A stretch of DNA of 64,000 nt from an uncultured virus (IMG/VR IMGVR_UViG_3300043961_000090) (lineage: Duplodnaviria > Heunggongvirae > Uroviricota > Caudoviricetes): IMG/VR virus record IMGVR_UViG_3300043961_000090, one strand, 5' to 3'. Positions 41,056 through 63,544 of this stretch are shown piece after piece; positions within the stretch are counted from its first letter, which is position 1, and the number at the start of each line of letters is the position of its first letter. A model generated the notes under the pieces. It ran no database searches and was not told where the DNA came from. It saw only the letters and a program-made list of their open reading frames with translations. The position numbers and the translations under genes were made by a program.

Positions 41056-41077
41056 CAATTTTTATCAGATTTACTCA

Positions 41078-41189: not shown

Positions 41190-41486
41190 ATGGAAATCAA
41201 AGAACTTGTTAAAGAGAAAGAAGAACAGATGATAGTTCTCACGGCCAAACAGCTGAATGACTTTGCTGAAGACTTAATAGAGAAACATCATAAAGATTTA
41301 ATTGCCATCATCAAAGAAGACAGGCAAGATAAGATAATCACACAATCTGAAGCAGCAGATCAATTACATATCTGTTCTAGAACACTGAAGAGATGGGCAC
41401 AAGCTGGACTAATTAATATCCTAAAGATAGGTGGGAAAAACATGTATTTTCAGAAAGATATTGATAGAATGCTAAGTAGTGAATAA
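41190..41486 (+). CDS. MerR-like HTH excisionase/regulator
   Basis: ITQSEAADQLHICSRTLKRW...KIGG..YF..DI. Confidence 0.85.
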   Translation: MEIKELVKEKEEQMIVLTAKQLNDFAEDLIEKHHKDLIAIIKEDRQDKIITQSEAADQLHICSRTLKRWAQAGLINILKIGGKNMYFQKDIDRMLSSE

Positions 41487-42990: not shown

Positions 42991-43882
42991 CATATATAAA
43001 GACAAAGTACGATTGCTCCTTCGGATTCTTCCGATCATTACAGATGAGGAATGTTTTGCCATACACGGTGGAACTGCCATCAACCTGTTTGTAAACAATC
43101 TTTATAGACTTTCTGTGGATATAGATATTACCTACATTCCGTTGGAAGATAGGACATCAAGCATAAAACATATCAATGAAGCCTTAGAGAGGATCAGTTC
43201 CAGAATAACGGAACTTTTGAAAGGTGTGAGAGTGATCCCACGACTGGATATATGCAAGTTGACATGTGAATACCATGGCTGTCAGGTAAAAATAGAAGTT
43301 AACCAAACCAAGCGCGGTATCATTGGAGGCAAAACTGTAATAATGCCGTTATGTACAAAAGCTCAGGATATGTTTGAGATGGAAGTCGAGGCGAGAATAG
43401 TGCCTCTCACGCTGCTTTATGGAGGTAAGATTGCAGCTGCTTTATCACGACAGCATCCACGCGACATGTTTGATATCAGTCACATGAGTATTTCTTTGGC
43501 AGAAGCCAAATATGGGTTTATTTTTTGCCTCCTAGGCAGTGACAGGCCCATACACGAGTCCTTTGCTCCAAGCCTGATAGACCAGAAAGAGGCCATGGAA
43601 AAACAGTTTACAGGGATGTCAGACTTAGATTTTACTTATGAGGACTATAAAAAAACGAGACAAAAACTGATAGAAGATATCAAAAAGATCATAACCGAAG
43701 AGGATAAGCATTTTCTAATATCATTTGAGCAAGGAAATCCAAATTGGAAAGAATCAGACTATGAAGAATTTGCAGACTATCCGTCTGTAAAATGGAAACT
43801 TTTGAATTTGAATAAACTCAAACAGAATAATCCGAAAAAGCTGATGAAAGAAGCTAATCGGTTAAAAGAAATATTTGAATAA
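42983..43882 (+). CDS. abiEii: Type IV TA nucleotidyltransferase toxin AbiEii
   Basis: FAIHGGTAINLF..RLSVDID, GKIAAALSRQHPRDMFD. Confidence 0.92.
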   Translation: MNSIYKDKVRLLLRILPIITDEECFAIHGGTAINLFVNNLYRLSVDIDITYIPLEDRTSSIKHINEALERISSRITELLKGVRVIPRLDICKLTCEYHGCQVKIEVNQTKRGIIGGKTVIMPLCTKAQDMFEMEVEARIVPLTLLYGGKIAAALSRQHPRDMFDISHMSISLAEAKYGFIFCLLGSDRPIHESFAPSLIDQKEAMEKQFTGMSDLDFTYEDYKKTRQKLIEDIKKIITEEDKHFLISFEQGNPNWKESDYEEFADYPSVKWKLLNLNKLKQNNPKKLMKEANRLKEIFE

Positions 43883-44010
43883 AATGTAAGTTCTAATCTT
43901 TGAAAAAGAAAAAATTAAAGCCCTCATCCTTTTGCAAACTTTAGGAAATAGGTAGACGAACTATGTCTTGCCGTAATTAATACTTGATGGCAGGAAAGCC
44001 ATCGTGCTAT

Positions 44011-44498
44011 TTCCCTTATAGTTTTAAAAGAAAATAAAACATTCTTGCAACAAAATAATGTTCCATCTTCTGTCCCAGAGCTGCGGTTCTGGCTTAAAGC
44101 AAGAACCGCAGGAATATCAGCTTGGCGGATATTCGGCTTTAAAGGAAACAGTTCTGCTGTATGGGTAGGAAATCGGCTACCTCCCAGTGCAGGGCTTGGA
44201 GTGATGACATCGTCATGAACGGAAAGGACAAACGGGAGGTGTCGGATGAACATACCGATACAGATGTACCGTTTCCGTTTGGGAGTATGGTGGGCAAAGC
44301 CTCCATAGAATGCCTAAGCCACTCTCCCGAAGCCTGTCCGTATCCCTATGGACAGGTGCAAAGAGGTCTTTCGAGAATGTTCACAGTGAAACCGTAAATA
44401 TTCTCAAGATACTGCTTTGCAGGGCGGCAAGCATATTTTTCGCAATGAACATTAAATCTTAATAACTACTCGTTTTGAAATTAGAATATCTTCTCTAT
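44011..44498 (+). repeat. ~490-bp direct repeat copy 1, containing a structured RNA-like element (~44055-44440)
   Basis: Roughly 90% identical by eye to 46853-47342; many stem-loops; terminal hairpin plus T-tract. Confidence 0.9.
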
Positions 44499-44522
44499 AG
44501 GATAAGTGCATTTGATAAAAGT

Positions 44523-46094
44523 TCATAGATAGAGTTTAAAATATTTCCTGACCATTGCCTTTAGTTGGCCGGCCGTCAGATTTGCTAATCCGGTCTTCTC
44601 TATCAGTAAGAACTCTTCCTTGTTCCTGCCAATGACAAACTTACGTTCTATGCCATCAATATTAGCAAGCAGATGAAAATTGCCTTTGTATGCCTGTTCA
44701 ATATGGATATTCGAGATAGCATGACCGTTGATGGCTATAGCAGGCATATCCGCTTGTTCTTCACATTGACCTTCGGTCCATGTCGGTCGCAACTCGGCAA
44801 AGCCGATGCAAGCATCGCTTTGCTCTCGCTGCTTCGTCCATTCACCCCACTCTTTCAGATGACCAATGATCGTTGTCTCAACTCTGCCGATCCATTTTTC
44901 TGTAACACCATATTTTGTGGCTATCTTGCGGAATTGTTTCAATGAACCAGCAATATCTCGGATGATCGCGTCTGGTCTGCGTATGCCATTGTCACGTGCG
45001 AACTGGATAGCATCATCACGGGTAATGTTCCGGAGCTTTGCCCTAATATACAGGCAATGATCTTCGTTTGGCAAGAAGCCACCATGATCTATTATATAAG
45101 TAATGTCATAAGCAGGCGATAGTCGCCAGTTTCCATCTTCATTCATGATGAACGAGAAGTTCTTATTATGGTCATCAGTATTGTTGGCCAATATATTGAA
45201 TACCATGCGACGGAACACCTCCTGACAATCAGACTCAGGCAAATGGAGTTTTCTGCAAACTACGATCAACTGCTCATAACTGTCTGCATCTGGATAGATA
45301 GCAGCCAACGTCTGCGTATAGACTTTCTTACCGCCATCACGATCAAAACGTTTGGTCATAAAATGATTGTTGCCTTCAACAGGATATAACTCTGATGGCA
45401 TCATGTTGATTCCTGCAGTTGTGGCCAGTTCATAATAGGTCATCTCAAGTTCTGCAGAGCTATACTGCGAATTACCAAACTTCAGTAAATAGTAATCGTA
45501 GTCTTTCAAGTCTGAAATCTGACCACTGCGTATCTCACCGTTTTTGCGATTGAGAGCAATGATAGCCTTAGGTTGTCTGCCACCAGCCGATGTACCAACA
45601 GTCAGTAACGACTGCATGGTGATGGATTCTTCAGGCATGATGCGAGCATTTTCTCTTTCCATAAAGATGTGTTCTGCTAAGTCAACCAACGATTTCAAGT
45701 CTATCTTCTCAGCCCTACGCTCTCTCGATGTCTCTGGAAGGAACTCCAAGGCACCCATACCTCGTTTTCCTATGAATGAGAGCTTATCAAGAGGAGTTAT
45801 ATCTGCATTGGCCAGATGGTTCTGTTGGCGCCATAGGTCAAACAGTTGATTCCCCCAGGCATCAGGTAAGGAGTCAGCAATAAAGGCTGGCAACTTCTGA
45901 TAGATCTTGGCATCCTCACCCCAAACAGGCGTAAGTTCTCTTGTTCCATTTACTGGTGCAACCAAAGGAGAAATATTCAGTCCCTTCTTAACAAACTCTG
46001 GATTATACATGAAATAAGACAACCTGCGCCGTTCATCCCATGCCAGTCTTCCAATCTCTTCATCCCAAAGAATTACCCTTAATGATTTGATCAT
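44523..46094 (-). CDS. hipA: HipA-family kinase toxin with C-terminal extension
   Basis: DSLPDAWG, SAGGRQPK, NTDDHNKNFSF, LSPAYDI. Confidence 0.93.
   Translation of the reverse strand: MIKSLRVILWDEEIGRLAWDERRRLSYFMYNPEFVKKGLNISPLVAPVNGTRELTPVWGEDAKIYQKLPAFIADSLPDAWGNQLFDLWRQQNHLANADITPLDKLSFIGKRGMGALEFLPETSRERRAEKIDLKSLVDLAEHIFMERENARIMPEESITMQSLLTVGTSAGGRQPKAIIALNRKNGEIRSGQISDLKDYDYYLLKFGNSQYSSAELEMTYYELATTAGINMMPSELYPVEGNNHFMTKRFDRDGGKKVYTQTLAAIYPDADSYEQLIVVCRKLHLPESDCQEVFRRMVFNILANNTDDHNKNFSFIMNEDGNWRLSPAYDITYIIDHGGFLPNEDHCLYIRAKLRNITRDDAIQFARDNGIRRPDAIIRDIAGSLKQFRKIATKYGVTEKWIGRVETTIIGHLKEWGEWTKQREQSDACIGFAELRPTWTEGQCEEQADMPAIAINGHAISNIHIEQAYKGNFHLLANIDGIERKFVIGRNKEEFLLIEKTGLANLTAGQLKAMVRKYFKLYL
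44764..44842. repeat. 75-bp palindromic REP/MITE-like in-frame insertion in hipA
   Basis: GCAAAGCCGATGC-AA-GCATCGCTTTGC hairpin; CATT at both ends 75 bp apart; locally GC-rich. Confidence 0.6.
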
Positions 46095-46100
46095 ATCTGC

Positions 46101-46412
46101 TTATTGTTTAGAGTGTCTGATTCGTTGTGCCTTCTTCTCATCCTTACGGATAAGATAGGGTGACTCCGGCAACTCAGGCAGCAAGTCATCCAGAGAATTG
46201 ATCTGACCGACAACCTTCAGCAGAAGGATGAAAGTGGACAGCGACAGATTTCCTGCCGTACCATTTTCAAACTTATGAATGGTAGTCAGTCCGATACCCG
46301 ATTGCTCTGCAACCTCCTTTTGGGTGAGATTGCAGCGCATCCTGTATTCCTTGAAGCGAGTACCAAGCAATCGTACCAGTTCAGGTGTGGAATATTCATA
46401 TAGGTCTGCCAT
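46101..46412 (-). CDS. hipB: XRE-family HTH antitoxin (HipB-like)
   Basis: LTQKEVAEQSGIGLTTIHKFENG; directly upstream of hipA. Confidence 0.88.
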   Translation of the reverse strand: MADLYEYSTPELVRLLGTRFKEYRMRCNLTQKEVAEQSGIGLTTIHKFENGTAGNLSLSTFILLLKVVGQINSLDDLLPELPESPYLIRKDEKKAQRIRHSKQ

Positions 46413-46852
46413 AATTCTTATTTTATACATTATTATAGTGATATTTATATCACTATTTTGTATTTTAAATTCATTTTATTGATATTTATATGTGCAAATA
46501 TACACGTTTTTTTGAATCAAACGAATTTTTTCGGGGAAATATGTGATGATCAGCCAACTTTTTAACAGTCCAAGGTATAAAGTGGAAATTTGAATTAAAA
46601 TGTAAAGAATACATATAACTAACTCATTTGCGGAATTCTAATTAAGGGAAGATATAAGAAGTTCTGTATAGCAATAGAAGAATTTCATCTGGATTTATCT
46701 CGTTCTTATTATCTTAGTTGTCTCTTGGGTAGCCGATTAGTGTCAGAATCTCTTCTTTTTCCTTTTTTTATAGCAGGAATAGGAGAATTTATTAGTTGTA
46801 AGAATTGTCAAAACTGGAAATACATTTCTGATAAAAGTTCATTATATTATTC

Positions 46853-47342
46853 TTCCCTTGTAGTTTTTAAAAGAAAATAAAACATTCTTGCAACAAAAAC
46901 AATGAGCCATCCTCTGTCCCAAAGCTGCGGTTCTGGCTTAAAGCAAGAACCGCAGGAATATCAGCTTGACGGATATTCGGCTTTAAAGGAAACGGTTCTG
47001 CTGTATGGGTAGGAAATCGGCTACCTCTCAGTGCAGGACTTGGAGTGATGACATCGTCATGAACGGAAAGGACAAACGGGAGGTGCCGGATGAACATACC
47101 GATACAGATGTACCGTTTCCGTTTAGGAGTATGGTGGGCAAAGCTCCTATAGAATGTCTTAACCACTCTCCCGAAGCCTGTCCGTGTCCCTATGGATAGG
47201 TGCAAAGAGGTATTTCGAGAATATTCACAGTGAAACCGTAAATATTCTCAAGATACTGCTTTGCAGGGTGGCAAGCATATTTTTTACAAGAAACATTAAA
47301 TATTAACATCTACCCATTTGGAAATTAGAATATTTTCTCTAT
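46853..47342 (+). repeat. ~490-bp direct repeat copy 2, containing a structured RNA-like element (~46898-47285)
   Basis: Homologous to 44011-44498, with several substitutions that preserve pairing on the + strand. Confidence 0.9.
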
Positions 47343-47433
47343 TGATAGCATGGTATATTAATTGAGATCTAAGAAATAAGGTTGTGTCACTGTAAAGTAA
47401 ACCTCAACCAAACTGGGTAATATTAGATACATT

Positions 47434-50400
47434 TCAACACAACTTTCTCAGTATCTCATTCACCATTTTCTCATACCACGATGCTATCTGAAGAGTAAAA
47501 TGACCATGAGAAAGATCAAAGGACGGCATAGAATTGATTTTCTTCAGTTCAGGAAATTCATTATGACAGAATTTATTACGAATTTCAAACAATAAATCCC
47601 AGTCCCCTTGATTAATATATCCCTTTCTTTTCAACCAATTCAAATAGGCTTCATGCTGGACATTAGGACCTTTTACAGTGCCTTCATTAAATAACTTGGT
47701 TTTATCTTCTGGGGAGATGACTGACAAAATACTCTTTTCCAATTCAAAAACCTTGCTGAATACTCTTTCCCGGTACTGTTCATAATCCTCCATTTCTGCA
47801 ACTAATTTATCAAAATCAATTTTCTCTTCTTTAAAATACGGGAGAAGATTTTGCATTCTTTCGTCATGAAGGAATCGAATAAAGAAGGAATAATCTTTTC
47901 TTTTCCTATGTGCCACAATAGTCCGATCATATAGACGTGCTTCCATATCTTCTTCCTCTTTAAGTGGATTTTTTGCAGAATTTGGATCTATATCATTAGG
48001 AGAGATTGTAAATGTTGAAATTCCTGAGTCAGAAGTAGATTTATTCTTTTTCGTGTTCATCTCCAAGAATACATGCCGTATCATCATCAACAAAATCCGG
48101 TCTTCCGTACAATAATAGCGGATTTTCTTTTCTTTCTCAGCTACAGCCTTTTTGAAAATTACTTTTAGCTGTTTTTCTGAGATTCTCTCCTTTTCTTTTT
48201 TGCATTGCTCAATAACATCATCGAGTATTGATTCATAATAATATTTTATGGGCCTATCTTCTGTTGGATCCACATTCACGACACACTCGTAAGGCCTATC
48301 CTTGAATATCGTATAATATCGTTTTTTATGATAAAATGGTTGTAGGTCTTTCAGCCACATTCCAAGCAATCGAGAATAGTTATAGGTCTTTTCACCATCA
48401 GAAATAGTTACTTTTTCTTTCAATCTAGTGATTAAAGCACTATCAAATAAATTAGTTGGCAGATCCGCAGGTTTAGGAACTTGTTTTGTAGAAGTAGAAT
48501 TTTGAGTTTGTACCGATTTCAACCAATTGTCGAAATCATGGACTAATTTCAAATTATTATCTAATTCCGAATTATCGTCTGCTTTAATCCATTTTTGATA
48601 AGTTAGGGGTACTCCTATTTCAGGCATACGAATCTCCGTTTCATTCTTTTTTTTCTTTTCATCCCATTTTGTGAAATAGAATGTCTTATGTAGCCAGCCC
48701 TTCTTTAATGATAAGTATTCTTTATAAAAATCCAAGGTTGAATTTGTCCTTTGACGATCCAAATCTGCAAGGAATGGGTGTCCCTTATCCTTATCCAATA
48801 AGTTCAAATCTCGCTTGCATAACTCCCAAAAGAGTTGCTTCTTTTCATTATTTGCATAAAGAGCTAGGCACTCCTGTAATAGGTCATAATAAAATGAAGT
48901 AATTTTAGTCTTTACATCACGATCTATCACTAGTTTGATAATATCACGAGCTAATTCTGACGCCATCTCGCCAACCTTTAGTTGTCTTCCCTTTTCTATA
49001 TCTTTTATCCGCTTCTTACAGTCTGTAGCAGCTTCCTTAATGCGCTCTTTGAAAGAGTAATTATTTCCAGTATCCTCAACATTTAGCCAATAGTCAATAA
49101 TACGACTCGGAATTTGTCGGCAATCCAATCCTTCAGGTTTCAATATAGTATCAAGATGAAGTTTTCTTTGATGGAATTCTGCCTGATATTCGTCATAGTC
49201 TTTTTTAGTTCTGTAATTTAGAGACTTTTTAGAATCAGTTGATATTCTTTTTAATAAACTGTAACAGGGTAACTGTTCCTTAATCTTATCTATCCATTTT
49301 CTGTTCAGTAAGCAATACTTGTTTTTATTCAAATAATTTTTAATTAGATTATAAGCGGATCCAGGCGAGAGCAACTCCAGTAATACAACCTTTGGTAATT
49401 CTGATATGCTCAAAAAAGCCTGTGGATTTTCCTTGTTAAAGGATATCTCTTGATTACTAAAAGCTAATGCAATTTTATTTTCTACAATATTATAATGAGG
49501 AGCATACTGAGTGAATTTTACTTCCGTACCTTTAAATAATTCTATGAAATCCTTTTCTTCAATGATTTTCTTCTGTACATCATCATTATAAGTTGATAAT
49601 TTCCCAAAAGTTTTAACATCTTTGACAATGCTTCTATTCTTTTCCTCAGGCATTTGCCCGAGCACACGTTTAGAATATGACTTTGTTTCAACTTTACCTA
49701 AATGAATTTGAAAATCATATTTAAAATTTTCTGAAGCATCAAGGAAGTTCAAAGCAAATTCTGGGAATCTGTCCCGACTTCGTTTTAATGTTGAAATGTC
49801 TTTCAAATAAGATTCATAGTCCTTGTCATCATATTTCGCATTCAAGGTTGGTTTGAATTGCTCCTGGTCATTTTTACCTAGGGTATTATATAATTCCTTC
49901 GGGGCACGTTGCAGATAGTTCAATGCATCCATAAGTACAGCCTGTTGAGGATTTTGGCTGTTCAGTTTATTATGAGGAAGTTTTACGCATAACACGGAAA
50001 AGGTCTCTCTTGTAGCCTGAAAATCCGGAGTTTCGGAATTTTTGAATCCACTGATCTTATTAAAGAAATGAAAAGCATTTTCTTTATCCAGAAATAAGCA
50101 ACAGAAGAATACCAAGCCTATTGTCGTCACTTGGTTCGTCTCGTCTACAAATAATTCCGGCCCGATTTTCTTTCTTACATTATCGAAACATTTATCTGAA
50201 ATCACATCTTGAAATCTTTTTTGGGCAAGTTTTACTGCCACTTCAAACAACTCTCTAAGTTGAAGTACTAACTCATTTTTAATATTTACTTTTCGTTGAG
50301 TGCCTGTATCTATGGAAAAATAATGAGTATATTCATTCCTAAAATCACACAGTTCTTTAAAGGCCATTTTTAGGAAATCAGCCAACTTCCCGATATCCGT

Positions 50401-50715
50401 ACCAGTGGCATCATCATCCATTCCTATATTTCTTCTGAAATCACTGGAAAAAGCATTTGCCAATGGAAGATAACGGCATAGATTCAGGTAGATTATTCCA
50501 CCAGGATCAGTAAAAGAAAAAGATTCCGTTAAGAAGGTATTACCTATATTACTATCATCACCCAATTTTGGTTTATTAAATTTTCTGGACATCTCTTGAG
50601 AAATCATAAAGACATTATGTCTCGCAATGTTCAGATATGCTCCAAAATATTCCGGAGTAGTTTTGATTGTATAGGTTTTTGATATCCTATGAAGTGTGTT
50701 TTTGTTTTTTATCAT
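47434..50715 (-). CDS. cas13b: Type VI-B CRISPR effector Cas13b
   Basis: 1093 aa; FGAYLNIARHN N-terminus; two HEPN RxxxxH motifs (RNEYTH, RNKFCH); DRFPEFALNFLD, GEMASELARDI; adjacent 36-nt repeat array. Confidence 0.93.
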   Translation of the reverse strand: MIKNKNTLHRISKTYTIKTTPEYFGAYLNIARHNVFMISQEMSRKFNKPKLGDDSNIGNTFLTESFSFTDPGGIIYLNLCRYLPLANAFSSDFRRNIGMDDDATGTDIGKLADFLKMAFKELCDFRNEYTHYFSIDTGTQRKVNIKNELVLQLRELFEVAVKLAQKRFQDVISDKCFDNVRKKIGPELFVDETNQVTTIGLVFFCCLFLDKENAFHFFNKISGFKNSETPDFQATRETFSVLCVKLPHNKLNSQNPQQAVLMDALNYLQRAPKELYNTLGKNDQEQFKPTLNAKYDDKDYESYLKDISTLKRSRDRFPEFALNFLDASENFKYDFQIHLGKVETKSYSKRVLGQMPEEKNRSIVKDVKTFGKLSTYNDDVQKKIIEEKDFIELFKGTEVKFTQYAPHYNIVENKIALAFSNQEISFNKENPQAFLSISELPKVVLLELLSPGSAYNLIKNYLNKNKYCLLNRKWIDKIKEQLPCYSLLKRISTDSKKSLNYRTKKDYDEYQAEFHQRKLHLDTILKPEGLDCRQIPSRIIDYWLNVEDTGNNYSFKERIKEAATDCKKRIKDIEKGRQLKVGEMASELARDIIKLVIDRDVKTKITSFYYDLLQECLALYANNEKKQLFWELCKRDLNLLDKDKGHPFLADLDRQRTNSTLDFYKEYLSLKKGWLHKTFYFTKWDEKKKKNETEIRMPEIGVPLTYQKWIKADDNSELDNNLKLVHDFDNWLKSVQTQNSTSTKQVPKPADLPTNLFDSALITRLKEKVTISDGEKTYNYSRLLGMWLKDLQPFYHKKRYYTIFKDRPYECVVNVDPTEDRPIKYYYESILDDVIEQCKKEKERISEKQLKVIFKKAVAEKEKKIRYYCTEDRILLMMIRHVFLEMNTKKNKSTSDSGISTFTISPNDIDPNSAKNPLKEEEDMEARLYDRTIVAHRKRKDYSFFIRFLHDERMQNLLPYFKEEKIDFDKLVAEMEDYEQYRERVFSKVFELEKSILSVISPEDKTKLFNEGTVKGPNVQHEAYLNWLKRKGYINQGDWDLLFEIRNKFCHNEFPELKKINSMPSFDLSHGHFTLQIASWYEKMVNEILRKLC

Positions 50716-50900
50716 TTTGTATTGCTTTTTTAGATCAACTAAGTTATCACCAAAGATACAAAAATCAAAACAAATTACATTATGAATTTTAGATTTTCTG
50801 ATTAGTTCCTAATAAAATATATTGCTCGGTTTTGGAGTAGACATATTGTCTTCTGAAAAACTGGCAATATATGTTTTAAGCTTCTGCAGATCATTGAACA

Positions 50901-51596
50901 GTTGTTTATACCCTACAAAATTAAGGCAGCTACAACTTCAGTACGTGTATGATTCATATAAAAGCGGTTGTTTATACCCTACAAAATTAAGGCAGCTACA
51001 ACAATGACAACACTTTTTCTCATAGTTCCACCGTTGTTTATACCCTACAAAATTAAGGCAGCTACAACGGAATGACGACATAATCAATATGCCTTTCGGT
51101 TGTTTATACCCTACAAAATTAAGGCAGCTACAACACTTTAATTCTCAGGATTCCACGACACCATGTTGTTTATACCCTACAAAATTAAGGCAGCTACAAC
51201 GATGGAACATACAACATCATCGTAGACAACGTTGTTTATACCCTACAAAATTAAGGCAGCTACAACTGATCTGCATGAGGAGAAACGAACTCCGGAGTTG
51301 TTTATACCCTACAAAATTAAGGCAGCTACAACACTCTCGTAACCATTATACTGGATCTACAGGTTGTTTATACCCTACAAAATTAAGGCAGCTACAACAA
51401 ATTCGTATCTGACCAGATGATTCATTTCGTTGTTTATACCCTACAAAATTAAGGCAGCTACAACAAAGAATATTGCAACAATGCAAGTAATCATGTTGTT
51501 TATACCCTACAAAATTAAGGCAGCTACAACGCAATCAAAAGAATTGCAAGAGTTAGGGGTGTTGTTTATACCCTACAAAATTAAGGCAGCTACAAC
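50901..51596 (-). CRISPR. CRISPR array: 11 identical 36-bp repeats, 10 spacers of 30 bp
   Basis: Repeat on - strand GTTGTAGCTGCCTTAATTTTGTAGGGTATAAACAAC, period 66 bp; GTTG...CAAC ends typical of VI-B. Confidence 0.98.
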
Positions 51597-51805
51597 TTAC
51601 ATGTCGTATCTTCCACATTATAAGGGTATTATCTTCTATTTTAGCATGATAAAATGCTATTAAATTATTTTTCTGGCACTGCTCAACTCGATAATTTCTT
51701 TTCTAATCCTGATATTACGTCCTCAATATTTTTCTACTTTTACAGTACTCTGTCGGTTTAATTCTTAAATCTTTGCCCATCCGTCTCATTGATAAGAATT
51801 ACCTG

Positions 51806-51837
51806 CAAATATAAGATAAACTAAGCTGATATCCAAA
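51806..51837 (-). promoter_or_regulatory. Promoter driving the CRISPR array leftwards
   Basis: - strand TTTG (51834-51837), 20 bp, TATATTTG (51806-51813). Confidence 0.7.
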
Positions 51838-51849
51838 TATTTAAAAGCT

Positions 51850-52206
51850 TTATTTAGTCAGTTGACCATTTCTTGTGTCAAACTCACTGTCATCTGGTAG
51901 TTCAAAGTATTCCTTATTTGTGGTATTGACAAAGCTGACACTCCTCTTGTCGCCATTCGAAAGAATATAGAAATCAGAAATATTAAAATCAGCCTTCTTT
52001 AACATCTGTATATAAAATTTCCTGCGGCGTGGATCCTTGTCAACGGATTGCAGTTGTGCCACAACACTATTGTCATCCGTGTGCATCACCCCGTGGACGT
52101 GATTTTTTATCCAATGACAGAGTGTTACTATCGGTTTGGCATCGTCCGAAAGTGATACCCTTTCTACAGTCTTTTCCCTATAGATTATAATATATAGTCT
52201 TATCAA
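51850..52206 (-). CDS. Hypothetical protein
   Basis: 118-aa ORF between array and tra region; start uncertain. Confidence 0.5.
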   Translation of the reverse strand: MIRLYIIIYREKTVERVSLSDDAKPIVTLCHWIKNHVHGVMHTDDNSVVAQLQSVDKDPRRRKFYIQMLKKADFNISDFYILSNGDKRSVSFVNTTNKEYFELPDDSEFDTRNGQLTK

Positions 52207-52487
52207 TTATCAACTGATAGATTCCACAATTATACTATCTTTTGTCCATAAATCCGAATTTATCCTAAATATAGGATACGAATGCACGGATAAATAGATT
52301 TTTACTATCTTTGCATGAGTTTTTCTACCCGAAAAACGCCAGAATGAAAAATACCTCATAAGCAGGAAATGAAGTGGCCGAGCACTCCGTCTATAGAAAC
52401 AACTCATCATTCTTAAAATGGAAACTCCACGGTGCTGGCCTTCGGGTACAGACCGTGGGCTTTAATAAGAAAAAAGAACAGACAACT

Positions 52488-52988
52488 ATGGTTTACTATT
52501 TGATAATCGGCTTTTACCTTCTATTATATGCCTGGATGATTTTTCACGACCTTTTCCACAAGGAGCCGGTGGAAATTGCCTCCAGGACAGAAGAGGAAGA
52601 AATAGATATTTCTGAGGAAGCCAAGGCTTTTAAGCCCATAGAGGTCTCTAAGGAGATGTCAGCAGCTCAGCCTTTAAAAGGAGAAAATTCTGTGACTATG
52701 GAAAGAAAGGAGAAAGAGGAAGCAATGAAAGAAACTCCCTCTTTCGAATCTCAACCAATGGAGCAGGAAATCTCGGAGCAGGAATACCTTTCATCTGACG
52801 GTGAGGTTCCGGAGCAAACGACATCTCCTGAAGAAGGGCCTGTCCCGGAGATCCTCCCCTTCCAGAGCACTGAATATTCCGGAGGTATCCTCATGAGCAT
52901 CCTTCATAAACAGATTGAAGACCTTTCGCAAAAGGATCCGGAGATGGACGATGTGACTATCCATCTGATGAAAATTGATCAGAAATAG
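52488..52988 (+). CDS. Membrane-anchored acidic protein at head of tra operon
   Basis: N-terminal TM helix, Glu-rich tail; TATCTTTG promoter at 52306-52313. Confidence 0.65.
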   Translation: MVYYLIIGFYLLLYAWMIFHDLFHKEPVEIASRTEEEEIDISEEAKAFKPIEVSKEMSAAQPLKGENSVTMERKEKEEAMKETPSFESQPMEQEISEQEYLSSDGEVPEQTTSPEEGPVPEILPFQSTEYSGGILMSILHKQIEDLSQKDPEMDDVTIHLMKIDQK

Positions 52989-53181
52989 CAGAATCAGTAT
53001 CCGAGAATTTGGACTTATTTTTAATTTGGTGGAGCATTCGGTATGCTTCCATAAAAAACAGAGGTGACAGCCTGTTTCTTGGTTTGTAAGTACCAAGTTT
53101 ATTTTCTTCCACTTATGGATGAAGATGTCCGCATTTGCGATTTAATTTGAAACGTAAAGTTTTACTCCATGAGAAAAATTT

Positions 53182-53541
53182 ATGCTTCGAGTAAACTTCA
53201 AAGTATTTCTTTGCAAAGTAAAGAACTCTTGCAAGAAAATTTCAGTAAAGCGTGTCGCCACAGTGGCTTGTATGGTACTCTTCTGTACCCTTGATATTTG
53301 TGCCCAAAGTCATGGAGCGGGAGGCTTCACAAAGGCCACTTCAGAGATTTCTTCGTATCAGACTCCTGTCAGTAATCTGATGAAGGCTATTGCCGCCGTC
53401 ATCGTACTTGTCGGAGCGTTCAATGTCTATTTTAAAATGCAAAACGGAGACCAGGATGTCAAGAAGACCATCATGCTGACCATCGGCGGTTGCGTAGCAT
53501 TCATCGCCATGTCAGAAGCCCTTCCATTGTTCTTTAAATAA
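53182..53541 (+). CDS. traE: TraE-like (VirB2-like pilin, DUF4134)
   Basis: AIAAVIVLVGAFNVYFKMQNGDQDVKK. Confidence 0.85.
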   Translation: MLRVNFKVFLCKVKNSCKKISVKRVATVACMVLFCTLDICAQSHGAGGFTKATSEISSYQTPVSNLMKAIAAVIVLVGAFNVYFKMQNGDQDVKKTIMLTIGGCVAFIAMSEALPLFFK

Positions 53542-53618
53542 GGACATGGGAATCATACATTCAGGAGGGGGACTCTTACAAAGTATGTGTCCTTTCCTGT
53601 CTTTTGAAATCACGATCA

Positions 53619-53906
53619 ATGGAGATGAATTTTAATGGTTATCCTGTTTTCAAGGGACTTCAGAAGCCTTTGGAGTTCATGGGTATCCGCGGACGTTTTC
53701 TGACTTATGCCGCCATGGTCATCGGTATCTCTTTTATCGGCTATATCCTCTTTTCTATCCTCGTTGGAAAACTTGCTGGATTCCTTGCCATGACAGGCAT
53801 TACTGCCATGGGCATCCTCGGTATTTTCATCAGACAGAAGAGCGGACTGCACAATAGAAAACGGAGCCGGGGCATCTTCGTCTACCATCACCTTTTCTCA
53901 CGATAG
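53619..53906 (+). CDS. traF: TraF-like (DUF4133)
   Basis: YPVFKGLQKPLEFMGIRGRF plus two TM helices. Confidence 0.8.
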   Translation: MEMNFNGYPVFKGLQKPLEFMGIRGRFLTYAAMVIGISFIGYILFSILVGKLAGFLAMTGITAMGILGIFIRQKSGLHNRKRSRGIFVYHHLFSR

Positions 53907-53910
53907 AACA

Positions 53911-56814
53911 ATGTTTGGAAAAAAGAAAAGCAAAATCGACGGTATCTTTGCCGAACTGGAAGACATCAAGGACGATAAGGGCAAGCTTCTCAATACGGTA
54001 TTGTTCTCCTGTAGGGGTGATGCTTCGGTACTTATCGAGATGGAGAACCCCGTCCAGCAGTATTCGACGGATCCAGCTCTCTATATAGGTTACATGGATG
54101 TGTTGGGTAATATCGTGGAGACCCTTGGAGAAGGCTTTGCCTTGCAAAAGCAGGACATTTTCTGTCGCCAGCGTTATCACCACCCTGTTACCTCGGATAT
54201 GGAATACCTGACAAAGAGCTATTTCCGCTATTTCGAGGGCCGGCCCTATACGGAGATCCGTACCTTCCTGATCCTCACGATGGAGGGACAGAAGAGCACT
54301 TTTGTTAAATATGACGAGAAGGCCTGGAAAGCGTTTCATGTCAAGGTCAGCAAGGTTATTGACATCCTCAAGGAGCATGAAATCCGGTACCATAAGCTCA
54401 GCAAGGAAGAGGTCAACGAATACCTTCATCGTTATATGGCCTGTCATTTTCGAAAGGGATCTTTTGCCATGCAGAACTTCAAGGCCTCTGATGAAAGTCT
54501 GCGGATGGGCGCTGATGCGGTCCAGTCCTTCAGTCTGGTTGATGTCGACGAGATCGACCTTCCTTCCTTTATCAAGCCCTATCTGACCGTTCCGGTCAAC
54601 GGGTATACCATCGCCACTGACCTCCTGGCATTCCTGGCAGAGATTCCCGATACCCACTGCGTCATCTATAATCAGGTTCTTCAGGTTCCCCAGCAGCGGA
54701 AGCTGCTGAGAAAACTGCAGGGCAAGGCCAAGCGTCACGGCAGCATGCCTGATCCCAGCAATAAGATTGCCAAGTCTGATATTGAGCAAGTCCTCAATGT
54801 CCTTGCCACGGAGAGCAAGATGCTCGTCAATACCAACTTCAATATCCTGGTCTGTTGTCCGCAGGAGAAGCTCACCTCAGTCAGCTCATACATTGAGACC
54901 CGTCTTTATGAGTGCGGTATCCTGCCCTCCCGGTCAGCCTATAACCAGCTGGAACTTTTCCTGGACTGTTTCCCCGGTAATGCCTATTCCTTCAATCCCG
55001 ACTATGACTTGTTCCTGACCATGAACGATGCCGCTCTCTGCCTTTTCTATAAGGAGCATCTGAAACACAGTGAGGACACCCCGCTGAAAACATGGTACAC
55101 CGACCGTCAGGGACTGCCGGTGTGCATCGACATTACCGGCAAGGAAGGGTCAGTGAGATATACGGACAACAGTAATTTTTTCTGCATCGGGCCAAGTGGC
55201 AGCGGAAAGAGTTTCCATATCAATTCCGTTGTCCGCCAGTTGCTGGAACAGGATACCGATGCCGTCATGGTCGATACGGGAGATTCATACGAGGGTATCT
55301 GTGCCTATTTCAAGGGGACTTATATCACTTACAGCAGAGAGCATCCCATCTCCATGAATCCTTTCAAGATCACAAAGGAGGAGTATGACCAGAATTTCGG
55401 AGAGAAGAAGAACTTCCTGAAAAGTCTCATTTTCCTTATTTTCAAGGGGAACGAGGCACCGACAAAGATAGAAGACAAGATTATCAACCAGACCATCGTG
55501 GAATACTACCAGGAATACTTCCATCCCTTCAGGGAATATACCGAAAAGGAAAGAGAACAGCTCCGGGAGCGGCTGCTGCTGGAAGATAAAAAGAATGGGG
55601 CATACGAACACTATGAAGAAAAAATTGAAGAGAAGTACGCAGATCCCTATCGTATTCCGGAACTTGAAAAGGGAACTGCTGGAGGAGATGCTCCTCAAAG
55701 CAGGGATCATGCGGTGGAAGAAGAATACACCTCTCAGGAGAAGAAGCACCATGCCAAGGTCGTCCGTCAGGTAAACAAACTGCACGGTCTGGCTAATGAT
55801 GATGCTGCTACCGAAGGAGAGAAGGCTGCTGCCAGCAGACAGCTCCTCCGCCTGATGCCGGAGCTTATTGAAGGCAGGTATATGATGCGGATAGAGAAAA
55901 AGATAGACCGCATGGAGGAACAACGACGGAAGATGCATGTCGGGCGGCTGAACTTCAACAGCTATTATGAATTTGCCCTGGAGCGTATCCCTCAGATCAT
56001 GAAGGACAGCAGTATCAGTTTCGACATCAATGATTTTTCTGCTATACTGGAACAGTTTTATAAAGGCGGCGAGCTGGAATCTACGCTGAACAACGATGCT
56101 GATGCCAGCCTTTTCAGTGAACGGTTCATCGTTTTTGAGATTGATAAGATCAAGGATGATCCTGTCCTGTTCCCCATCGTCGTGCTCATCATCATGGATG
56201 TCTTCCTCCAGAAGATGCGTCTGAAAAAAGGACGCAAGGCGCTCATCATCGAAGAGGCCTGGAAAGCCATCTCCTCACCTACCATGGCCGAATATATCAA
56301 GTACCTCTATAAAACCGTAAGGAAGTTCCATGGCATCGCCGGTGTCGTCACCCAGGAGTTGAATGACGTGATTGACTCCCCTATCGTGAAGGAAGCGATC
56401 ATCAATAATTCAGACATCAAGATCCTTCTCGACCAGAGCAAGTTCAGGGACAGGTATGACGAGATTTCTGCCATCCTCGGTCTCACGCCCGTACAGCGGC
56501 AGCAGATCTTCACCATCAATAATCTCCGGAACCATGAGGGGAGAAACTATTTCAAGGAAGTTTGGATTGCCCGGGGGCAGTATTCTGATGTCTATGGCGT
56601 GGAGGAACCGCCTGAATGCTACTGGGCCTATACCACGGAACGGGCGGAAAAGGAAGCCCTCAAAATTTATGAAGCCCGGTATGGCGGTATCCAGACGGCC
56701 ATCACCAGGATAGAAGAAGACCGCAGGAAGTCAAAGACAGACACCTATCTCGACTTTGCGCGGCAAGTGAATGAACACGGAAAGGTTATGAGCTTATGGA
56801 AGCAAAACGATTAG
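53911..56814 (+). CDS. traG: TraG VirB4-family conjugation ATPase
   Basis: GPSGSGKSF, LIIEEAW, LYKTVRKF. Confidence 0.93.
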   Translation: MFGKKKSKIDGIFAELEDIKDDKGKLLNTVLFSCRGDASVLIEMENPVQQYSTDPALYIGYMDVLGNIVETLGEGFALQKQDIFCRQRYHHPVTSDMEYLTKSYFRYFEGRPYTEIRTFLILTMEGQKSTFVKYDEKAWKAFHVKVSKVIDILKEHEIRYHKLSKEEVNEYLHRYMACHFRKGSFAMQNFKASDESLRMGADAVQSFSLVDVDEIDLPSFIKPYLTVPVNGYTIATDLLAFLAEIPDTHCVIYNQVLQVPQQRKLLRKLQGKAKRHGSMPDPSNKIAKSDIEQVLNVLATESKMLVNTNFNILVCCPQEKLTSVSSYIETRLYECGILPSRSAYNQLELFLDCFPGNAYSFNPDYDLFLTMNDAALCLFYKEHLKHSEDTPLKTWYTDRQGLPVCIDITGKEGSVRYTDNSNFFCIGPSGSGKSFHINSVVRQLLEQDTDAVMVDTGDSYEGICAYFKGTYITYSREHPISMNPFKITKEEYDQNFGEKKNFLKSLIFLIFKGNEAPTKIEDKIINQTIVEYYQEYFHPFREYTEKEREQLRERLLLEDKKNGAYEHYEEKIEEKYADPYRIPELEKGTAGGDAPQSRDHAVEEEYTSQEKKHHAKVVRQVNKLHGLANDDAATEGEKAAASRQLLRLMPELIEGRYMMRIEKKIDRMEEQRRKMHVGRLNFNSYYEFALERIPQIMKDSSISFDINDFSAILEQFYKGGELESTLNNDADASLFSERFIVFEIDKIKDDPVLFPIVVLIIMDVFLQKMRLKKGRKALIIEEAWKAISSPTMAEYIKYLYKTVRKFHGIAGVVTQELNDVIDSPIVKEAIINNSDIKILLDQSKFRDRYDEISAILGLTPVQRQQIFTINNLRNHEGRNYFKEVWIARGQYSDVYGVEEPPECYWAYTTERAEKEALKIYEARYGGIQTAITRIEEDRRKSKTDTYLDFARQVNEHGKVMSLWKQND

Positions 56815-57530
56815 TATTATTCCTGTTTGTCCTGTTGCTTACTCTGGGTACAAGGGCCGGATTCCGGGTTGTTACAGATCCCTGGACGACAGCTGCCGTT
56901 ACGGCCAATGCCGCAGCCCAGAAAGCCATCGAGAGCAAGCATAACCAGCGGTTGGACTCCATCTCAGCAAAACAGAAGAAACTGATGGCTTATACTGCGG
57001 CAATGGCCAGCATCCGGGAGATGTATCAGTTTACGCTGCAAAATGTGGAAGGCTTCGGACCGGAAAGCCAGTATTACAAGGAAATTTTCTCCTGTGCCGC
57101 AGACATCCTCACCGATGTGCCCACCGTGCTGAAAGCTATAGCTAATAAGCCTGTCAAGAACTATATCCTGTGCCTGAATGAGCTGGCCGATGTCACTGAG
57201 GAGACTGAAGGGCTCGTCCATGACTTCAAGGATATCGTCAACAATGGCAGGATACGGCTTCCCGACATCCCCGTCATCAAAAAGACCATTCCGGAGAAGG
57301 AAAAGAATGACGGCTACAACCTGCTGGACCGCTATGAGCGTCTGACCCTGGCCAACAAGATTTACTCCCATCTGCTGGAAATGAAGTACAAGATGGATGC
57401 TATGGTGATGATGTGCCACTACTGTGGATGGAGTACGGTCTTTTTTGACCTTGATCCGGAGACCTGGGCGAGCTGTTTCACCGGCGCGAATATGGTGAGC
57501 GGACTGATCAATGACTGGAACGGACTTTAA
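56796..57530 (+). CDS. Exported conjugation protein
   Basis: Signal peptide, VVTDP motif; in tra operon. Confidence 0.65.
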   Translation: MEAKRLVLFLFVLLLTLGTRAGFRVVTDPWTTAAVTANAAAQKAIESKHNQRLDSISAKQKKLMAYTAAMASIREMYQFTLQNVEGFGPESQYYKEIFSCAADILTDVPTVLKAIANKPVKNYILCLNELADVTEETEGLVHDFKDIVNNGRIRLPDIPVIKKTIPEKEKNDGYNLLDRYERLTLANKIYSHLLEMKYKMDAMVMMCHYCGWSTVFFDLDPETWASCFTGANMVSGLINDWNGL

Positions 57531-57533
57531 CGT

Positions 57534-58208
57534 ATGAAGGCAAGACTATTCTTTCTTTTAGTGGCAGTGACGGCCATCCTGCCCCTCCAGGCTTTTGATA
57601 CGCCGCATGATCTTCCGACTATTGAGGCGCTCATCAGCCTTCACAAGCTCATCAAGGGTAATGAAGACCAGGCCCTGGTAAGGGTGACCGCCAGTTTCGG
57701 AGAGCAGAGCATTGTCACCAAAGGAGCCACAGAGTTCAATGCTGCCCGGTCAACCCTGGACAGCAAGCTCTCCAACGGTTACAGTGCCATACTCCTTGCC
57801 AGTGCGCTGGCCGGCACGGGCACCGACCTCTACAAGCTCATTGACGAGTATGCACGGTTTACCTCTTCCATGGCCCGGACCCTGTTCCACAAGCCTATGT
57901 GTGCCTGGTACTATACGGAGGCCGGTTATGCCTGTGCCCGGGAGATGAAAAATATCCGGAAGATGGCTGTCACCCTTTCCGCCGGCAGCATCAACCTCAT
58001 GAAAGCCTCCATGGATGAGAAGCTCGACCTTGTCAATCAACTCAGGGAGTATATTGACAACATGAAGGCGATCATCGAAGAAGCATACGCCTGGTGCAGT
58101 GTCGTAATAGTCGGCGGTTTTCATTATGACTATATCTGGGACATCCTGAACTCCGATGTAACGGACGGCATTGTAAAAGGAGTGATCAGCAAATGGTATA
58201 ACCTATAA
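57534..58208 (+). CDS. Exported conjugation protein
   Basis: Signal peptide; in tra operon. Confidence 0.65.
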   Translation: MKARLFFLLVAVTAILPLQAFDTPHDLPTIEALISLHKLIKGNEDQALVRVTASFGEQSIVTKGATEFNAARSTLDSKLSNGYSAILLASALAGTGTDLYKLIDEYARFTSSMARTLFHKPMCAWYYTEAGYACAREMKNIRKMAVTLSAGSINLMKASMDEKLDLVNQLREYIDNMKAIIEEAYAWCSVVIVGGFHYDYIWDILNSDVTDGIVKGVISKWYNL

Positions 58209-58220
58209 AACAAGAAGAAT

Positions 58221-58895
58221 ATGAAACGATTTCTGATTTTAGCTCTGTTTTTACTTTCCCTGAAGGTAACCGGCAGGGCACAGTCCGTGCAGCATGACTC
58301 CCAGAAGGAGAAGCAGTGGCGGTCGATGGAGACCGGTCCGTGGGATTTTGATCCGGGATGGTATTACTATTTCCTCCACAAGGATTACAGTGGAGCTTAT
58401 ACCAAATGGAAATGGCACGGCTTCCACTCCGGACTGCGTGTGTATTTCAGGGAGAGCAAGTCTCATGTCAAGACCATTATGCCCGACCGTGCCGCCGCCG
58501 AGGAGGAACAGAGAGCCGGTGAGAAGAAGGCGGAGGAAGAACGGCAGGAAATCAAACCCCTGTACCAGGAAGAGCTTGCCCGTGCAGCTGACCGTTCCGT
58601 GGACCTGGTCTATGCTGATTTCAAGGATGACTACAACCGGATGCAGGATGATATCGATGACGGTCTTGTCTATTGCATGAAGAAAAGCAAGGGCCGTCTC
58701 AGCTATCAGGTCACCCAGCTCCAGAATCAGAATGAACTGATCTGCAACAGTATCGGATACATCCATAAGACCGGCCTCGCCTACGGACTGGAGAATGTCA
58801 GGAGGGAGAAAGCCTATATCGAATATCGGAAGCAGATGCAGGAGCTGGTCAGCCGTGTTGCCCATCTGGTCGGTATGGCACAGAGCTATTACTAA
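58221..58895 (+). CDS. Exported conjugation protein (DUF5045-like)
   Basis: KQWRSMETGPWDFDPGWYYYFLHKDYSGA. Confidence 0.7.
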   Translation: MKRFLILALFLLSLKVTGRAQSVQHDSQKEKQWRSMETGPWDFDPGWYYYFLHKDYSGAYTKWKWHGFHSGLRVYFRESKSHVKTIMPDRAAAEEEQRAGEKKAEEERQEIKPLYQEELARAADRSVDLVYADFKDDYNRMQDDIDDGLVYCMKKSKGRLSYQVTQLQNQNELICNSIGYIHKTGLAYGLENVRREKAYIEYRKQMQELVSRVAHLVGMAQSYY

Positions 58896-58905
58896 AGGAT
58901 ACACT

Positions 58906-60231
58906 ATGATGGATTTGCTACTGGATATCTGTACCCGTCATCTGTTGACCATGGGCCTTCCGGCTATTGACCAGAGTCTGGACAAACTGCTTGTGACCAT
59001 GGAGACCTTCCCAAGGTCTGCCGTTCTGGGCAGTGCCGTCGGCTATGCCCGGATCCTGGGGCTCTGCCTTGCCCTCTGTGTGGGTAGCTATGAGTGCTGG
59101 ATGATGATGCTCGGCCGCAGGGCCATGGATGTGATGAAACTCCTCCGTATCATCGGGCTCAGTATGTGCATCTCCTCGAGTACCTGGATATGCAATGAGC
59201 TTGCCGTTCCGGGAAAGGCTCTGGAGAATACCACTAAGCAGATGGCTGTCAGCAAGAACAGGGAGGTGGCGGCCCTGGAGCTGAAAGTGGCGGAAAAACA
59301 AGACGGCTATCTCAGACGGCTGAGGGCCATACAGGACAGCCTTTCTACGGCTAAGCAGGTCCAGGCCATCGGCGAGGATGCTCACTGGTGGGACAAGCTC
59401 ATCTACAATATGCAGAACCTGGGCAGTACCATCAATGACTATGCCCAGCGGGCAGCAGTCCTCACGGAGACCAAAGCCTCGGAATGGATCAATGACATCA
59501 TCCGTTTTATCGGGGAGCTGATCTTCCAGATGTCCTATTACGGTATGCTGGTGGCCCAGCGCATCTTCCTGACTATCCTGGCGACCTTTGCCCCTATCAT
59601 GTTTGCCCTGAGCATCGTGCCGCCTTTCAGCAATGCCTGGTCACAATGGATGTCCAAGTACCTCAGCCTGACACTATGGGGCTTTGTGGTCTATATCTGT
59701 CTTTACTATGTGGACTTCATCCTGATGTATAATCTTACGGAGGACATCACCGCCTATGACACCCTTCTCAAAGGACAGGTGACGAACTGGGGTTCTATCG
59801 GTGCGCTCGGCCTGCAGGGTATCGGCTCCAACTGTATGTATGCCATGGGCATGCTGGTCGGGGCATACGTCATCCGATTCGTGCCGGAGGTCGCCTCATG
59901 GCTGATTCCGGGCGGTGTAAGCTCCAGTGCAGGGACGACGGCCGGAGCGGTATCTGCCGGTATCGTCAGCGGTGCCGTTTCAGGAGGCACAAGTGCCGCT
60001 GTAGGAGTTGGAGCTGCGGTAACCACAGGTTCGGCAACTGCCGTGGGGGCTGCCCAGCAGGCTCACAGTGACGGCGGCGGCCTGATCCGGGAAGCCGGAA
60101 GGACCATCGCCTCTCAGACCTTTGTCGGACAGGCCTACAGCCATGGGGCGGACAGTGCCCGCTCCATGCATAATGTCGGTACCAGTGACTCGAACTATAA
60201 GCGGGGTGGAACTCCGGATGGCAAGAGTTGA
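58906..60231 (+). CDS. traJ: TraJ-like (VirB6-like) inner-membrane protein
   Basis: Multiple TM helices, FAPIMFALSI..WSQWMSKYLSLTLW, Gly/Ala-rich tail. Confidence 0.8.
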   Translation: MMDLLLDICTRHLLTMGLPAIDQSLDKLLVTMETFPRSAVLGSAVGYARILGLCLALCVGSYECWMMMLGRRAMDVMKLLRIIGLSMCISSSTWICNELAVPGKALENTTKQMAVSKNREVAALELKVAEKQDGYLRRLRAIQDSLSTAKQVQAIGEDAHWWDKLIYNMQNLGSTINDYAQRAAVLTETKASEWINDIIRFIGELIFQMSYYGMLVAQRIFLTILATFAPIMFALSIVPPFSNAWSQWMSKYLSLTLWGFVVYICLYYVDFILMYNLTEDITAYDTLLKGQVTNWGSIGALGLQGIGSNCMYAMGMLVGAYVIRFVPEVASWLIPGGVSSSAGTTAGAVSAGIVSGAVSGGTSAAVGVGAAVTTGSATAVGAAQQAHSDGGGLIREAGRTIASQTFVGQAYSHGADSARSMHNVGTSDSNYKRGGTPDGKS

Positions 60232-60277
60232 TCCAAAGGAAGCCTCTTCAGAAAAGTAGATTTGAATTTTATATTGT

Positions 60278-60877: not shown

Positions 60878-60895
60878 TCTCTAATCCATTCAAGT

Positions 60896-63540: not shown

Positions 63541-63544
63541 AATT

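Follow-up and report, generated by a model that had tools for sequence, protein, structure and literature searches.

A type VI-B CRISPR-Cas locus on a conjugative element carries a spacer that matches the primase gene of the adjacent prophage

Introduction

Cas13, the effector of type VI CRISPR-Cas (short palindromic repeats that are clustered and regularly interspaced, with associated proteins) systems, cleaves RNA only and leaves DNA alone. Type VI-B repeats span 36 nucleotides (nt), begin with 5'-GUUG, end with CAAC-3' and have a loop that contains a poly-U stretch; in the mature CRISPR RNA (crRNA), a 30-nt spacer at the 5' end precedes the 36-nt repeat (Smargon et al., preprint 10.1101/092577). 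Elsewhere, a type III-A system has been seen to spare a silent prophage and to act upon transcription (PMC5754349), and transcription-dependent tolerance has been discussed for the type VI-A system of Listeria seeligeri (preprint 10.1101/2024.10.25.620265). A target expression threshold has been reported for Cas13, and in Porphyromonas gingivalis spacers against a strain's own prophage occur in 3 of 28 lysogenic strains (PMC10367356). Here we analyze a stretch of 64,000 nt recorded as an uncultured virus of the Caudoviricetes (IMG/VR IMGVR_UViG_3300043961_000090) and referred to below as the window. It holds a temperate prophage beside the left part of a Bacteroidetes-type integrative conjugative element, and the element carries a cas13b gene and a CRISPR array whose sixth spacer matches the DnaG-type primase gene of the prophage.

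Like the VI-B systems of BzCas13b and PbuCas13b, the locus has one large effector bearing two HEPN RNxxxH motifs and no adjacent cas1 or cas2, together with 36-nt GUUG/CAAC repeats, a U-rich loop, 30-nt spacers, and target flanks of 5' D and 3' NNA (Smargon et al., 10.1101/092577). It differs from the systems in the portions of that preprint used here in that the array lies upstream of cas13b, the locus sits within a conjugative element, and neither csx27 nor csx28 was found. It is a type VI-B locus by its Cas13b, as judged from sequence; the accessory gene that divides VI-B1 from VI-B2 was not detected, and the locus is assigned to neither subtype. A limited literature search turned up no description of a Cas13b on a conjugative element, or of a natural VI-B spacer against a lytic gene of a neighbouring prophage. 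The sparing of a silent prophage is itself already in print, having been shown for type III-A and argued for VI-A, and the locus is therefore a new context and a good natural example, not a new principle.

Results

The array contains 11 repeats, all identical, and 10 spacers (Table 1). Counted from the cas13b side, the sixth spacer (51267-51296) agrees with positions 2730-2759 on the same (plus) strand at 29 of 30 positions. With as many as three mismatches permitted, these were the only two places in the window at which the sequence occurred, and none of 100 dinucleotide-preserving shuffles gave a match, which bears out the pairing that an earlier reading of this DNA from its letters alone (the sequence-only reading) had pointed to. 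The sole difference is an A in the phage at 2736 against a G in the spacer at 51273. The phage base ends a CTA codon of the primase open reading frame (ORF), so that the CTA/CTG change is synonymous (Leu), as that reading had also held. The protospacer is flanked by a T (2729) on its 5' side and by AGA (2760-2762) on its 3' side. Under the rule reported for BzCas13b, flanks of U and AGA satisfy 5' D and 3' NNA and fail NAN, so that the claimed fit to the protospacer flanking site (PFS) of Cas13b held for the first two elements and not for the third. For the protospacer, the mean unpaired probability was predicted to be 0.65, which among all 30-nt windows of 1357-6375 corresponds to the 95.6th percentile, and the target site in the primase mRNA is predicted to be accessible. 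Spacer 6 was the only one of the ten spacers with a match elsewhere in the window.

The target gene is recognizable as a primase from its Pfam Zn_ribbon_DnaG, DNAG_N and Toprim domains, a TIGR01391 score of 358 bits (cut-off, 283.6), and a match to phrog_6444 DNA primase at 2e-103. In IMG/VR, no relative of this primase was found besides the record of the window itself.

Whether crRNA 6 could pair with the primase mRNA depends on the strand from which the array is transcribed. The U-run of the repeat (UUAAUUUUG) is confined to its minus-strand reading. Read in this way, the repeat folds at -9.7 kcal/mol into a terminal 5-bp stem and an inner 7-bp stem, as compared with -3.6 kcal/mol and no stable inner hairpin for the plus-strand reading. 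The minus strand is also that of cas13b, and VI-B arrays have been oriented with the effector gene by Smargon et al. (10.1101/092577) and Matrishin et al. (PMC10367356). A further line of evidence came from a sister strain in another metagenome, two contigs of which (L003 and L004) match the sequences flanking the array in the window at 98% and 97% identity. This strain has spacers 1-3, beside cas13b, in common with the window, and its two spacers on the side of the conjugation (tra) genes are unlike any spacer of the window. Spacer turnover at the tra-side end suggests that new spacers are added there, which would place the leader at that end (Table 1) and transcription on the minus strand. 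Together, the U-run, the fold energy, the strand of cas13b and the tra-side turnover make it very probable that the crRNA is made from the minus strand and is hence antisense to the plus-strand primase mRNA.

Were transcription instead to start at the cas13b side and follow the plus strand, crRNA 6 would be of the same sense as the primase mRNA and unable to pair with it. Such an orientation could draw on the symmetry of the GTTG/CAAC repeat ends, on an intergenic region between cas13b and the array that is likewise AT-rich, on the location of 7 of 36 mapped VI-B spacers on the non-coding strand (Smargon et al., 10.1101/092577), and on the lack of a consistent strand pattern in the portions of Matrishin et al. 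used here (PMC10367356). Nevertheless, the loop U-run, the two fold energies, the cas13b strand and the spacer turnover all favour the minus strand, and we consider a plus-strand array very improbable.

The minus strand of the leader carries TTTG, followed after 20 nt by TATATTTG (box 51813-51806), a motif match only, which fits the promoter consensus of Bacteroidetes. The sequence-only reading had placed the crRNA on the minus strand from repeat orientation and a leftward promoter. A sigma-70 promoter scan, which is uninformative for Bacteroidetes-type promoters, returned 7 candidates where 7.9 were expected by chance, and no terminator; a search of 50700-51900 against Rfam with E up to 1 matched no family. 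When a 24-nt piece of the repeat was searched for, it had no matches in genome contigs, and in metagenome contigs it was present only in the two contigs of the sister strain. Each repeat also holds TAATTTTG on the transcribed strand, which fits the TAnnTTTG box of Bacteroidetes promoters. Some type II-C arrays start transcription within each repeat. Every repeat here could in principle launch transcription of the next unit; equally, the motif may be just a conserved part of the U-rich loop.

Contigs from four other runs (X12, X14, X15 and X19) were compared with positions 1-6500 of the window. An X14 contig covering 2076-2828 at a depth of 29.1 differs from the window at 15 positions. Its allele has G at 2736, as does the spacer, but C at 2733 (GAT to GAC, synonymous), and so likewise agrees with the spacer at 29 of 30 positions. 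The window's A at 2736 recurs in X12 and X15, and X19 had no coverage there. The spacer, with T at 2733 and G at 2736, is one step from each observed allele, which indicates that its donor was probably a related, intermediate haplotype. The mismatch is therefore probably ordinary synonymous diversity, and of the two explanations previously put forward for it, escape by the phage or acquisition of the spacer from a relative, the second is favoured. Perfect-match relatives, which were sought in IMG/VR and in genome contigs, did not turn up: a protospacer pattern with R at 2736 and a codon-degenerate pattern recovered only the IMG/VR record identical to the window, and nothing among the genome contigs. 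Between crRNA 6 and the resident phage, the difference would amount to a C-A mismatch at spacer position 24 of the predicted pairing. PspCas13b tolerates single mismatches at spacer positions 5-30 (PMC8277810).

By its sequence, the effector is a full-length Cas13b with both catalytic motifs. It scored 662.8 bits against NCBIfam NF038190 (cut-off, 150) over model positions 3-1043 of 1066, which confirms the assignment made earlier, and matched the PADLOC Cas13b model at 1.8e-172. The best solved structure was PDB 6dtd, matched over part of the protein (9.4e-34). The HEPN motifs are RNEYTH at residue 126 and RNKFCH at residue 1046; across 24 aligned homologues, R126, N127, H131, R1046 and H1051 are invariant and N1047 is nearly so. 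Relatives at 75-85% identity occur on short metagenome contigs only. The cas13b of the sister strain is 99.9% identical, differing in 3 of 1094 codons (two synonymous, one not). A PADLOC scan of 12 ORFs found no csx27 or csx28.

The carriage of this locus on a conjugative element, as first proposed, is borne out by a left edge at 39363, an integrase gene close to it, and a set of conjugation genes scoring above the cut-offs of their families. Against the TIGR03783, TIGR03781, TIGR03779 and TIGR03780 set, TraG reached 441 bits (cut-off, 261.6), TraK 195.8 (152.5), TraM 177.6 (172.5) and TraN 226.2 (164.1). The score of TraJ was 45.5 bits, below its cut-off of 290. A relaxase, a coupling protein, oriT and the right-hand att would, if the element has them, be located outside the window. 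The integrases of element and phage showed no detectable relatedness by BLASTP (best E, 0.018 over 16 residues). G+C content is 33-44% in the integrase gene and the defence cargo (the AbiE and HipBA genes, cas13b and the array) as compared with 49-53% in the tra genes, a jump along the element which points to a source of lower G+C content for the cargo region, including cas13b. Just downstream of cas13b, a 300-nt direct repeat (44052-44351 and 46896-47195, 94% identical) brackets the module of the HipA-like kinase and its helix-turn-helix (HTH) partner, and each copy overlaps a small ORF without a known family (43924-44253 and 46867-47205). The module looks like a cassette that was inserted or duplicated within the defence cargo.

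The prophage and the element occupy the same attachment (att) core. The 13-bp core GTTGGGATACCCG occurs in exactly two copies in the window, whereas two copies arose in none of 100 shuffles. In each of the four runs, a contig agrees with the window up to position 127, beyond which it carries a T-loop-like sequence, TTCGAACCAGG, as expected of an empty site. On the minus strand, 113-127 and TTCGAACCAGG read, by eye, as the T-arm and the 3' strand of the acceptor stem of a tRNA; ARAGORN, run on the window alone, reported no tRNA. One contig of run X14 matches the window as far as 125, where it passes straight into 30 letters identical to 39363-39392, so that 126-39362 is precisely absent. From this 125/39363 join and the two core copies it follows that the prophage extends from 126 to 39362, that the element begins at 39363, and that the core is common to both, in keeping with the shared att site claimed at the outset. 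Close to each end of the prophage and within it (212-229 and 39277-39294), 87 and 55 nt from the core copies, is an 18-nt direct repeat, CCGACTTTTCGCCGAGTT, whose two copies match perfectly. As a candidate for the crossover core it was rejected, because the X14 contig joins at 125/39363; the two copies are likely a pair of arm-binding sites for the integrase.

Between the phage attP and the intact site 15 nt are shared, as against only 13 nt between attP and the left junction of the element. The order of tRNA 3' end, prophage and element fits an element that conjugated into an existing lysogen and integrated in the copy of the tRNA restored at the phage's right end, although arrival in the opposite order is conceivable too. 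Over 1-217, which comprises the chromosomal flank and the tRNA-like end, contig depths in X12, X14 and X19 added up to between 10-fold and more than 100-fold the depth of the prophage body; most host cells may be without the prophage, or the tRNA end may be common to many organisms.

The arrangement could also be a product of assembly, with the contig merging strains and spacer 6 possibly missing from the array of the prophage carriers. The DNA was assembled from a metagenome, and over the part of the window that was compared the IMG/VR record shows 100% identity, which makes it the same assembly and not an independent one. In addition, the array varies between strains, prophage-free and empty-site forms coexist in other samples, and 48.5 kb separates target and spacer. 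On the other hand, an assembler needs spanning reads to bridge a 13-bp repeat, so that the junction between prophage and element should be real, and the window is one unbroken contig in which the array is fully resolved. We therefore regard it as improbable that prophage and spacer 6 belong to different cells.

With its integrase, its flanking att repeats, the empty site, and its structural and lysis genes, the prophage is, on sequence grounds, a temperate tailed phage. The genes found (Pfam; PHROG) include those for the primase, an HNH endonuclease, a head protease, an endolysin, a holin, a tape measure protein, a tail fibre and the integrase. Only three genes lie on the minus strand (the repressor-like gene, a TM2/SHOCT gene and the integrase gene), and all lytic genes are on the plus strand. 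The repressor candidate has no Pfam match; in the Protein Atlas its feature score was 0.97 to clusters of XRE-family regulators, and one cluster matched there has Phage_CI_repr in 76% of its proteins. Between this gene and the early operon, copies of the operator-like repeat family D14 (AATTATCATTAT) are present at 1204 and 1256, and TATATTTG-type motifs match at 1198 and 1269, in keeping with a putative role of this region in control. Together, the gene layout and the CI-like lead suggest that the primase is silent in the lysogen. No member of an anti-CRISPR family was found among 34 prophage ORFs with NCBIfam, a library that may hold none for Cas13b.

Three further observations concern the prophage. 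A block of low G+C content (~33%) at 18753-20860 contains three consecutive paralogous ORFs that start alike and have no family match, as well as a 52-nt direct repeat with two perfectly matching copies (20223-20274 and 20803-20854); the block resembles a moron or a diversification region. A separate 52-nt repeat (22735-22786 and 34666-34717, 75% identical) has a TAnnTTTG box and lies upstream of the holin-like and tail-fibre genes; its copies may be repeated late phage promoters. Finally, one contig of run X15 tracks the left end of the prophage to 245 and diverges thereafter, and some phage variants, as seen in that contig, have another gene in place of the TM2/SHOCT gene (247-747).

Table 1. 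Coordinates of the prophage, the conjugative element and the CRISPR-Cas locus in the window
Feature	Position	Strand	Basis or remark
Left att core copy, 13 bp (GTTGGGATACCCG)	113..125		in apparent 3' end of minus-strand tRNA gene
Temperate prophage	126..39362	+	39,237 bp including right core copy; nearly all genes on + strand
Candidate CI/XRE-like repressor	781..1188	-	divergent from early operon; Protein Atlas lead only
Divergent control region (putative)	1189..1356		two AATTATCATTAT operator-like repeats, each beside a TATATTTG box
DnaG-type primase, 1308 amino acids	2449..6375	+	fourth ORF of rightward early operon; long C-terminal extension
Protospacer	2730..2759	+	sense strand of primase gene
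Prophage tyrosine integrase	38044..39204	-	Pfam Phage_integrase; phrog_1 integrase 1e-26
Right att core copy, 13 bp	39350..39362		prophage/conjugative element junction
Bacteroidetes-type integrative conjugative element, left part	39363..64000		left edge from X14 contig; right end beyond window
Element tyrosine integrase	39622..41055	+	Pfam Phage_integrase
HTH_17 (excisionase-like) protein	41190..41486	+	Pfam PF12728, 6.9e-8
AbiEi/AbiEii abortive-infection toxin-antitoxin pair (cargo)	42232..43882	+	Pfam; PADLOC AbiEi 1.2e-75, AbiEii 1.1e-103
HipA-like kinase and HTH partner (cargo)	44523..46430	-	Pfam HipA_C, Couple_hipA, HTH_3
cas13b, 1093 amino acids	47434..50715	-	NF038190, PADLOC and PDB 6dtd matches; both HEPN motifs
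Type VI-B CRISPR array	50901..51596	-	11 repeats (36 nt each) and 10 spacers (30 nt each)
Predicted 66-nt crRNA unit 6	51231..51296	-	spacer reverse complement then repeat; architecture after Smargon et al.
Leader (putative)	51597..51850	-	adjoining array end varies between strains, leader region itself 97% conserved
Conjugation genes: TraE-like pilin, TraG ATPase, TraJ-like, TraK, TraM, TraN	53182..64000	+	Pfam DUF4134/TrbC, P-loop_TraG, Transposon_TraM, DUF4138

Discussion

On balance, we lean towards the following interpretation: a minus-strand VI-B locus on the conjugative element makes a crRNA 6 that is antisense to the primase mRNA of the adjacent prophage, its spacer came from a related phage, and it acts when the prophage is induced. 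From what is known of Cas13, expression of the crRNA, activation of the effector, tolerance of the lysogen and abortion of induction may all be expected. The spacer would have been acquired from a closely related phage haplotype and would first have served as ordinary immunity to that phage family. In the lysogen, with the early operon repressed, target RNA would be absent, Cas13b would idle, and the prophage DNA would be left untouched. Upon induction, or upon infection by a relative, the primase mRNA would pair with crRNA 6 despite the one C-A mismatch and turn on the HEPN RNase, and the broad collateral cleavage of RNA that followed would arrest the cell and lower the release of phage. The lowered output would shield sister cells, including prophage-free carriers of the element such as those seen in X14.

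Several points weigh against this interpretation. Among the 24 sequencing runs listed for this sequence, no RNA run carried it, and two wastewater runs labelled as RNA contained only 0.07 of its sequence words. The nearest named protein, a Flavobacterium Cas13b, is only ~40% identical to the effector, and the PFS and mismatch rules applied here come from other orthologues; under the BzCas13b rule, moreover, the flanks fail NAN. The ORFs flanking the locus (46867-47205, 51850-52206 and 52374-52988) have no PADLOC, Pfam or NCBIfam match to csx27 or csx28, and cas1 and cas2 were not found in the window. The other nine spacers gave only chance-level matches in phage and plasmid collections (E 9; E 0.2-8), and none of spacers 7-10, searched for as exact patterns in IMG/VR, was matched (0 of 4). 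The repressor assignment is a lead from a language model and from structure, and the presence of the spacer-6 array and the prophage in one cell is known from metagenome assembly alone. Finally, a phage that expresses its early operon on infection would trigger Cas13b before lysogeny was established, so that co-residence calls for a special history, such as conjugation of the element into a lysogen.

Spacer 6 might instead be a leftover of an encounter with a related phage, without effect on the resident prophage, whose co-residence with the element would simply be tolerated. The cause could be poor expression, a Cas13b that is weak without Csx27 or Csx28, failure at the mismatch or the flanks, or a Cas13b inhibitor encoded by the prophage. 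Each of the two known phage alleles differs from the spacer at one position, the ORFs scanned included no accessory gene, and spacer 6 stands in the middle of the array, with four newer spacers on its leader side. Self-matching spacers in lysogens are known and are often put down to anti-CRISPRs, and many small ORFs of the prophage have no known function. Nevertheless, a studied Cas13b tolerates single mismatches well (PMC8277810), the flanks are permissive under the 5' D and 3' NNA rules of BzCas13b, cas13b is intact in both catalytic motifs, and the 34 prophage ORFs matched no anti-CRISPR family in NCBIfam, within the limits of that library noted above. The array has turned over at its leader end, with cas13b keeping 99.9% identity, and this speaks for a system that works. 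We hold an inert spacer to be possible but doubtful.

A more tentative extension of the preferred reading, in which crRNA 6 acts on induction, is that the element polices a rival for its own tRNA att site. As Cas13b spares DNA, the element could enter a lysogen without killing it. It would settle beside the silent prophage and hold it hostage, since induction would trigger dormancy, block the release of phage and thereby protect sister carriers of the element. On this reading, the locus would be a natural VI-B instance of conditional tolerance, serving a conflict between mobile elements rather than the host. We would not call this probable.

The window offers a natural test case within 64 kb, in which the effector, the array, the target, both att copies and two competing mobile elements lie together, with variants of the target available from other samples. 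If the proposed mechanism is true, conjugative elements could spread RNA-guided abortive immunity between strains and invade lysogens without autoimmunity. This would bear on the part that defence islands carried by mobile elements play in the dynamics of phages and hosts in anaerobic digester and fermentation communities.

Among described systems is that of P. gingivalis, a member of the same phylum, whose VI-B2 arrays target its prophages (Matrishin et al., 2023; PMC10367356). Prophages of this species are also the nearest relatives of the present phage in the phage collection, at ~70% identity over ~150 nt of the primase gene. In P. gingivalis, Csx28 is present, the extensive self-targeting is that of type I-B and is explained by anti-CRISPRs, and the parts of the study examined do not mention a conjugative element as carrier of the locus (PMC10367356). 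In L. seeligeri, the system is of type VI-A with Cas13a, and spacers were gained from a resident prophage in the laboratory with Cas1-2 supplied in trans; its locus is chromosomal, and the portions of the preprint used here give it neither a conjugative element nor a shared att site (10.1101/2024.10.25.620265).

The mechanism proposed here resembles type III immunity in that an RNA-sensing CRISPR system would spare an untranscribed prophage target and act on lytic expression. Conditional tolerance of a prophage by a type III-A system was reportedly described by Goldberg et al. in 2014. Unlike Cas13b, which acts on RNA only and for which dormancy is the expected outcome, type III systems also cut DNA and can cure or damage the lysogen. 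The type III case, moreover, is experimental, whereas the present one is a natural configuration known from sequence.

Mobile elements that carry CRISPR-Cas against their rivals are already familiar, for example as type IV systems on plasmids and as the type I-F system that phage ICP1 directs against PLE. As in these cases, the locus described here would aim the adaptive immunity of one mobile element at another in the same host. Those systems act on DNA or on plasmid maintenance; the conjugative element, in contrast, would act through Cas13b on the RNA of its neighbour.

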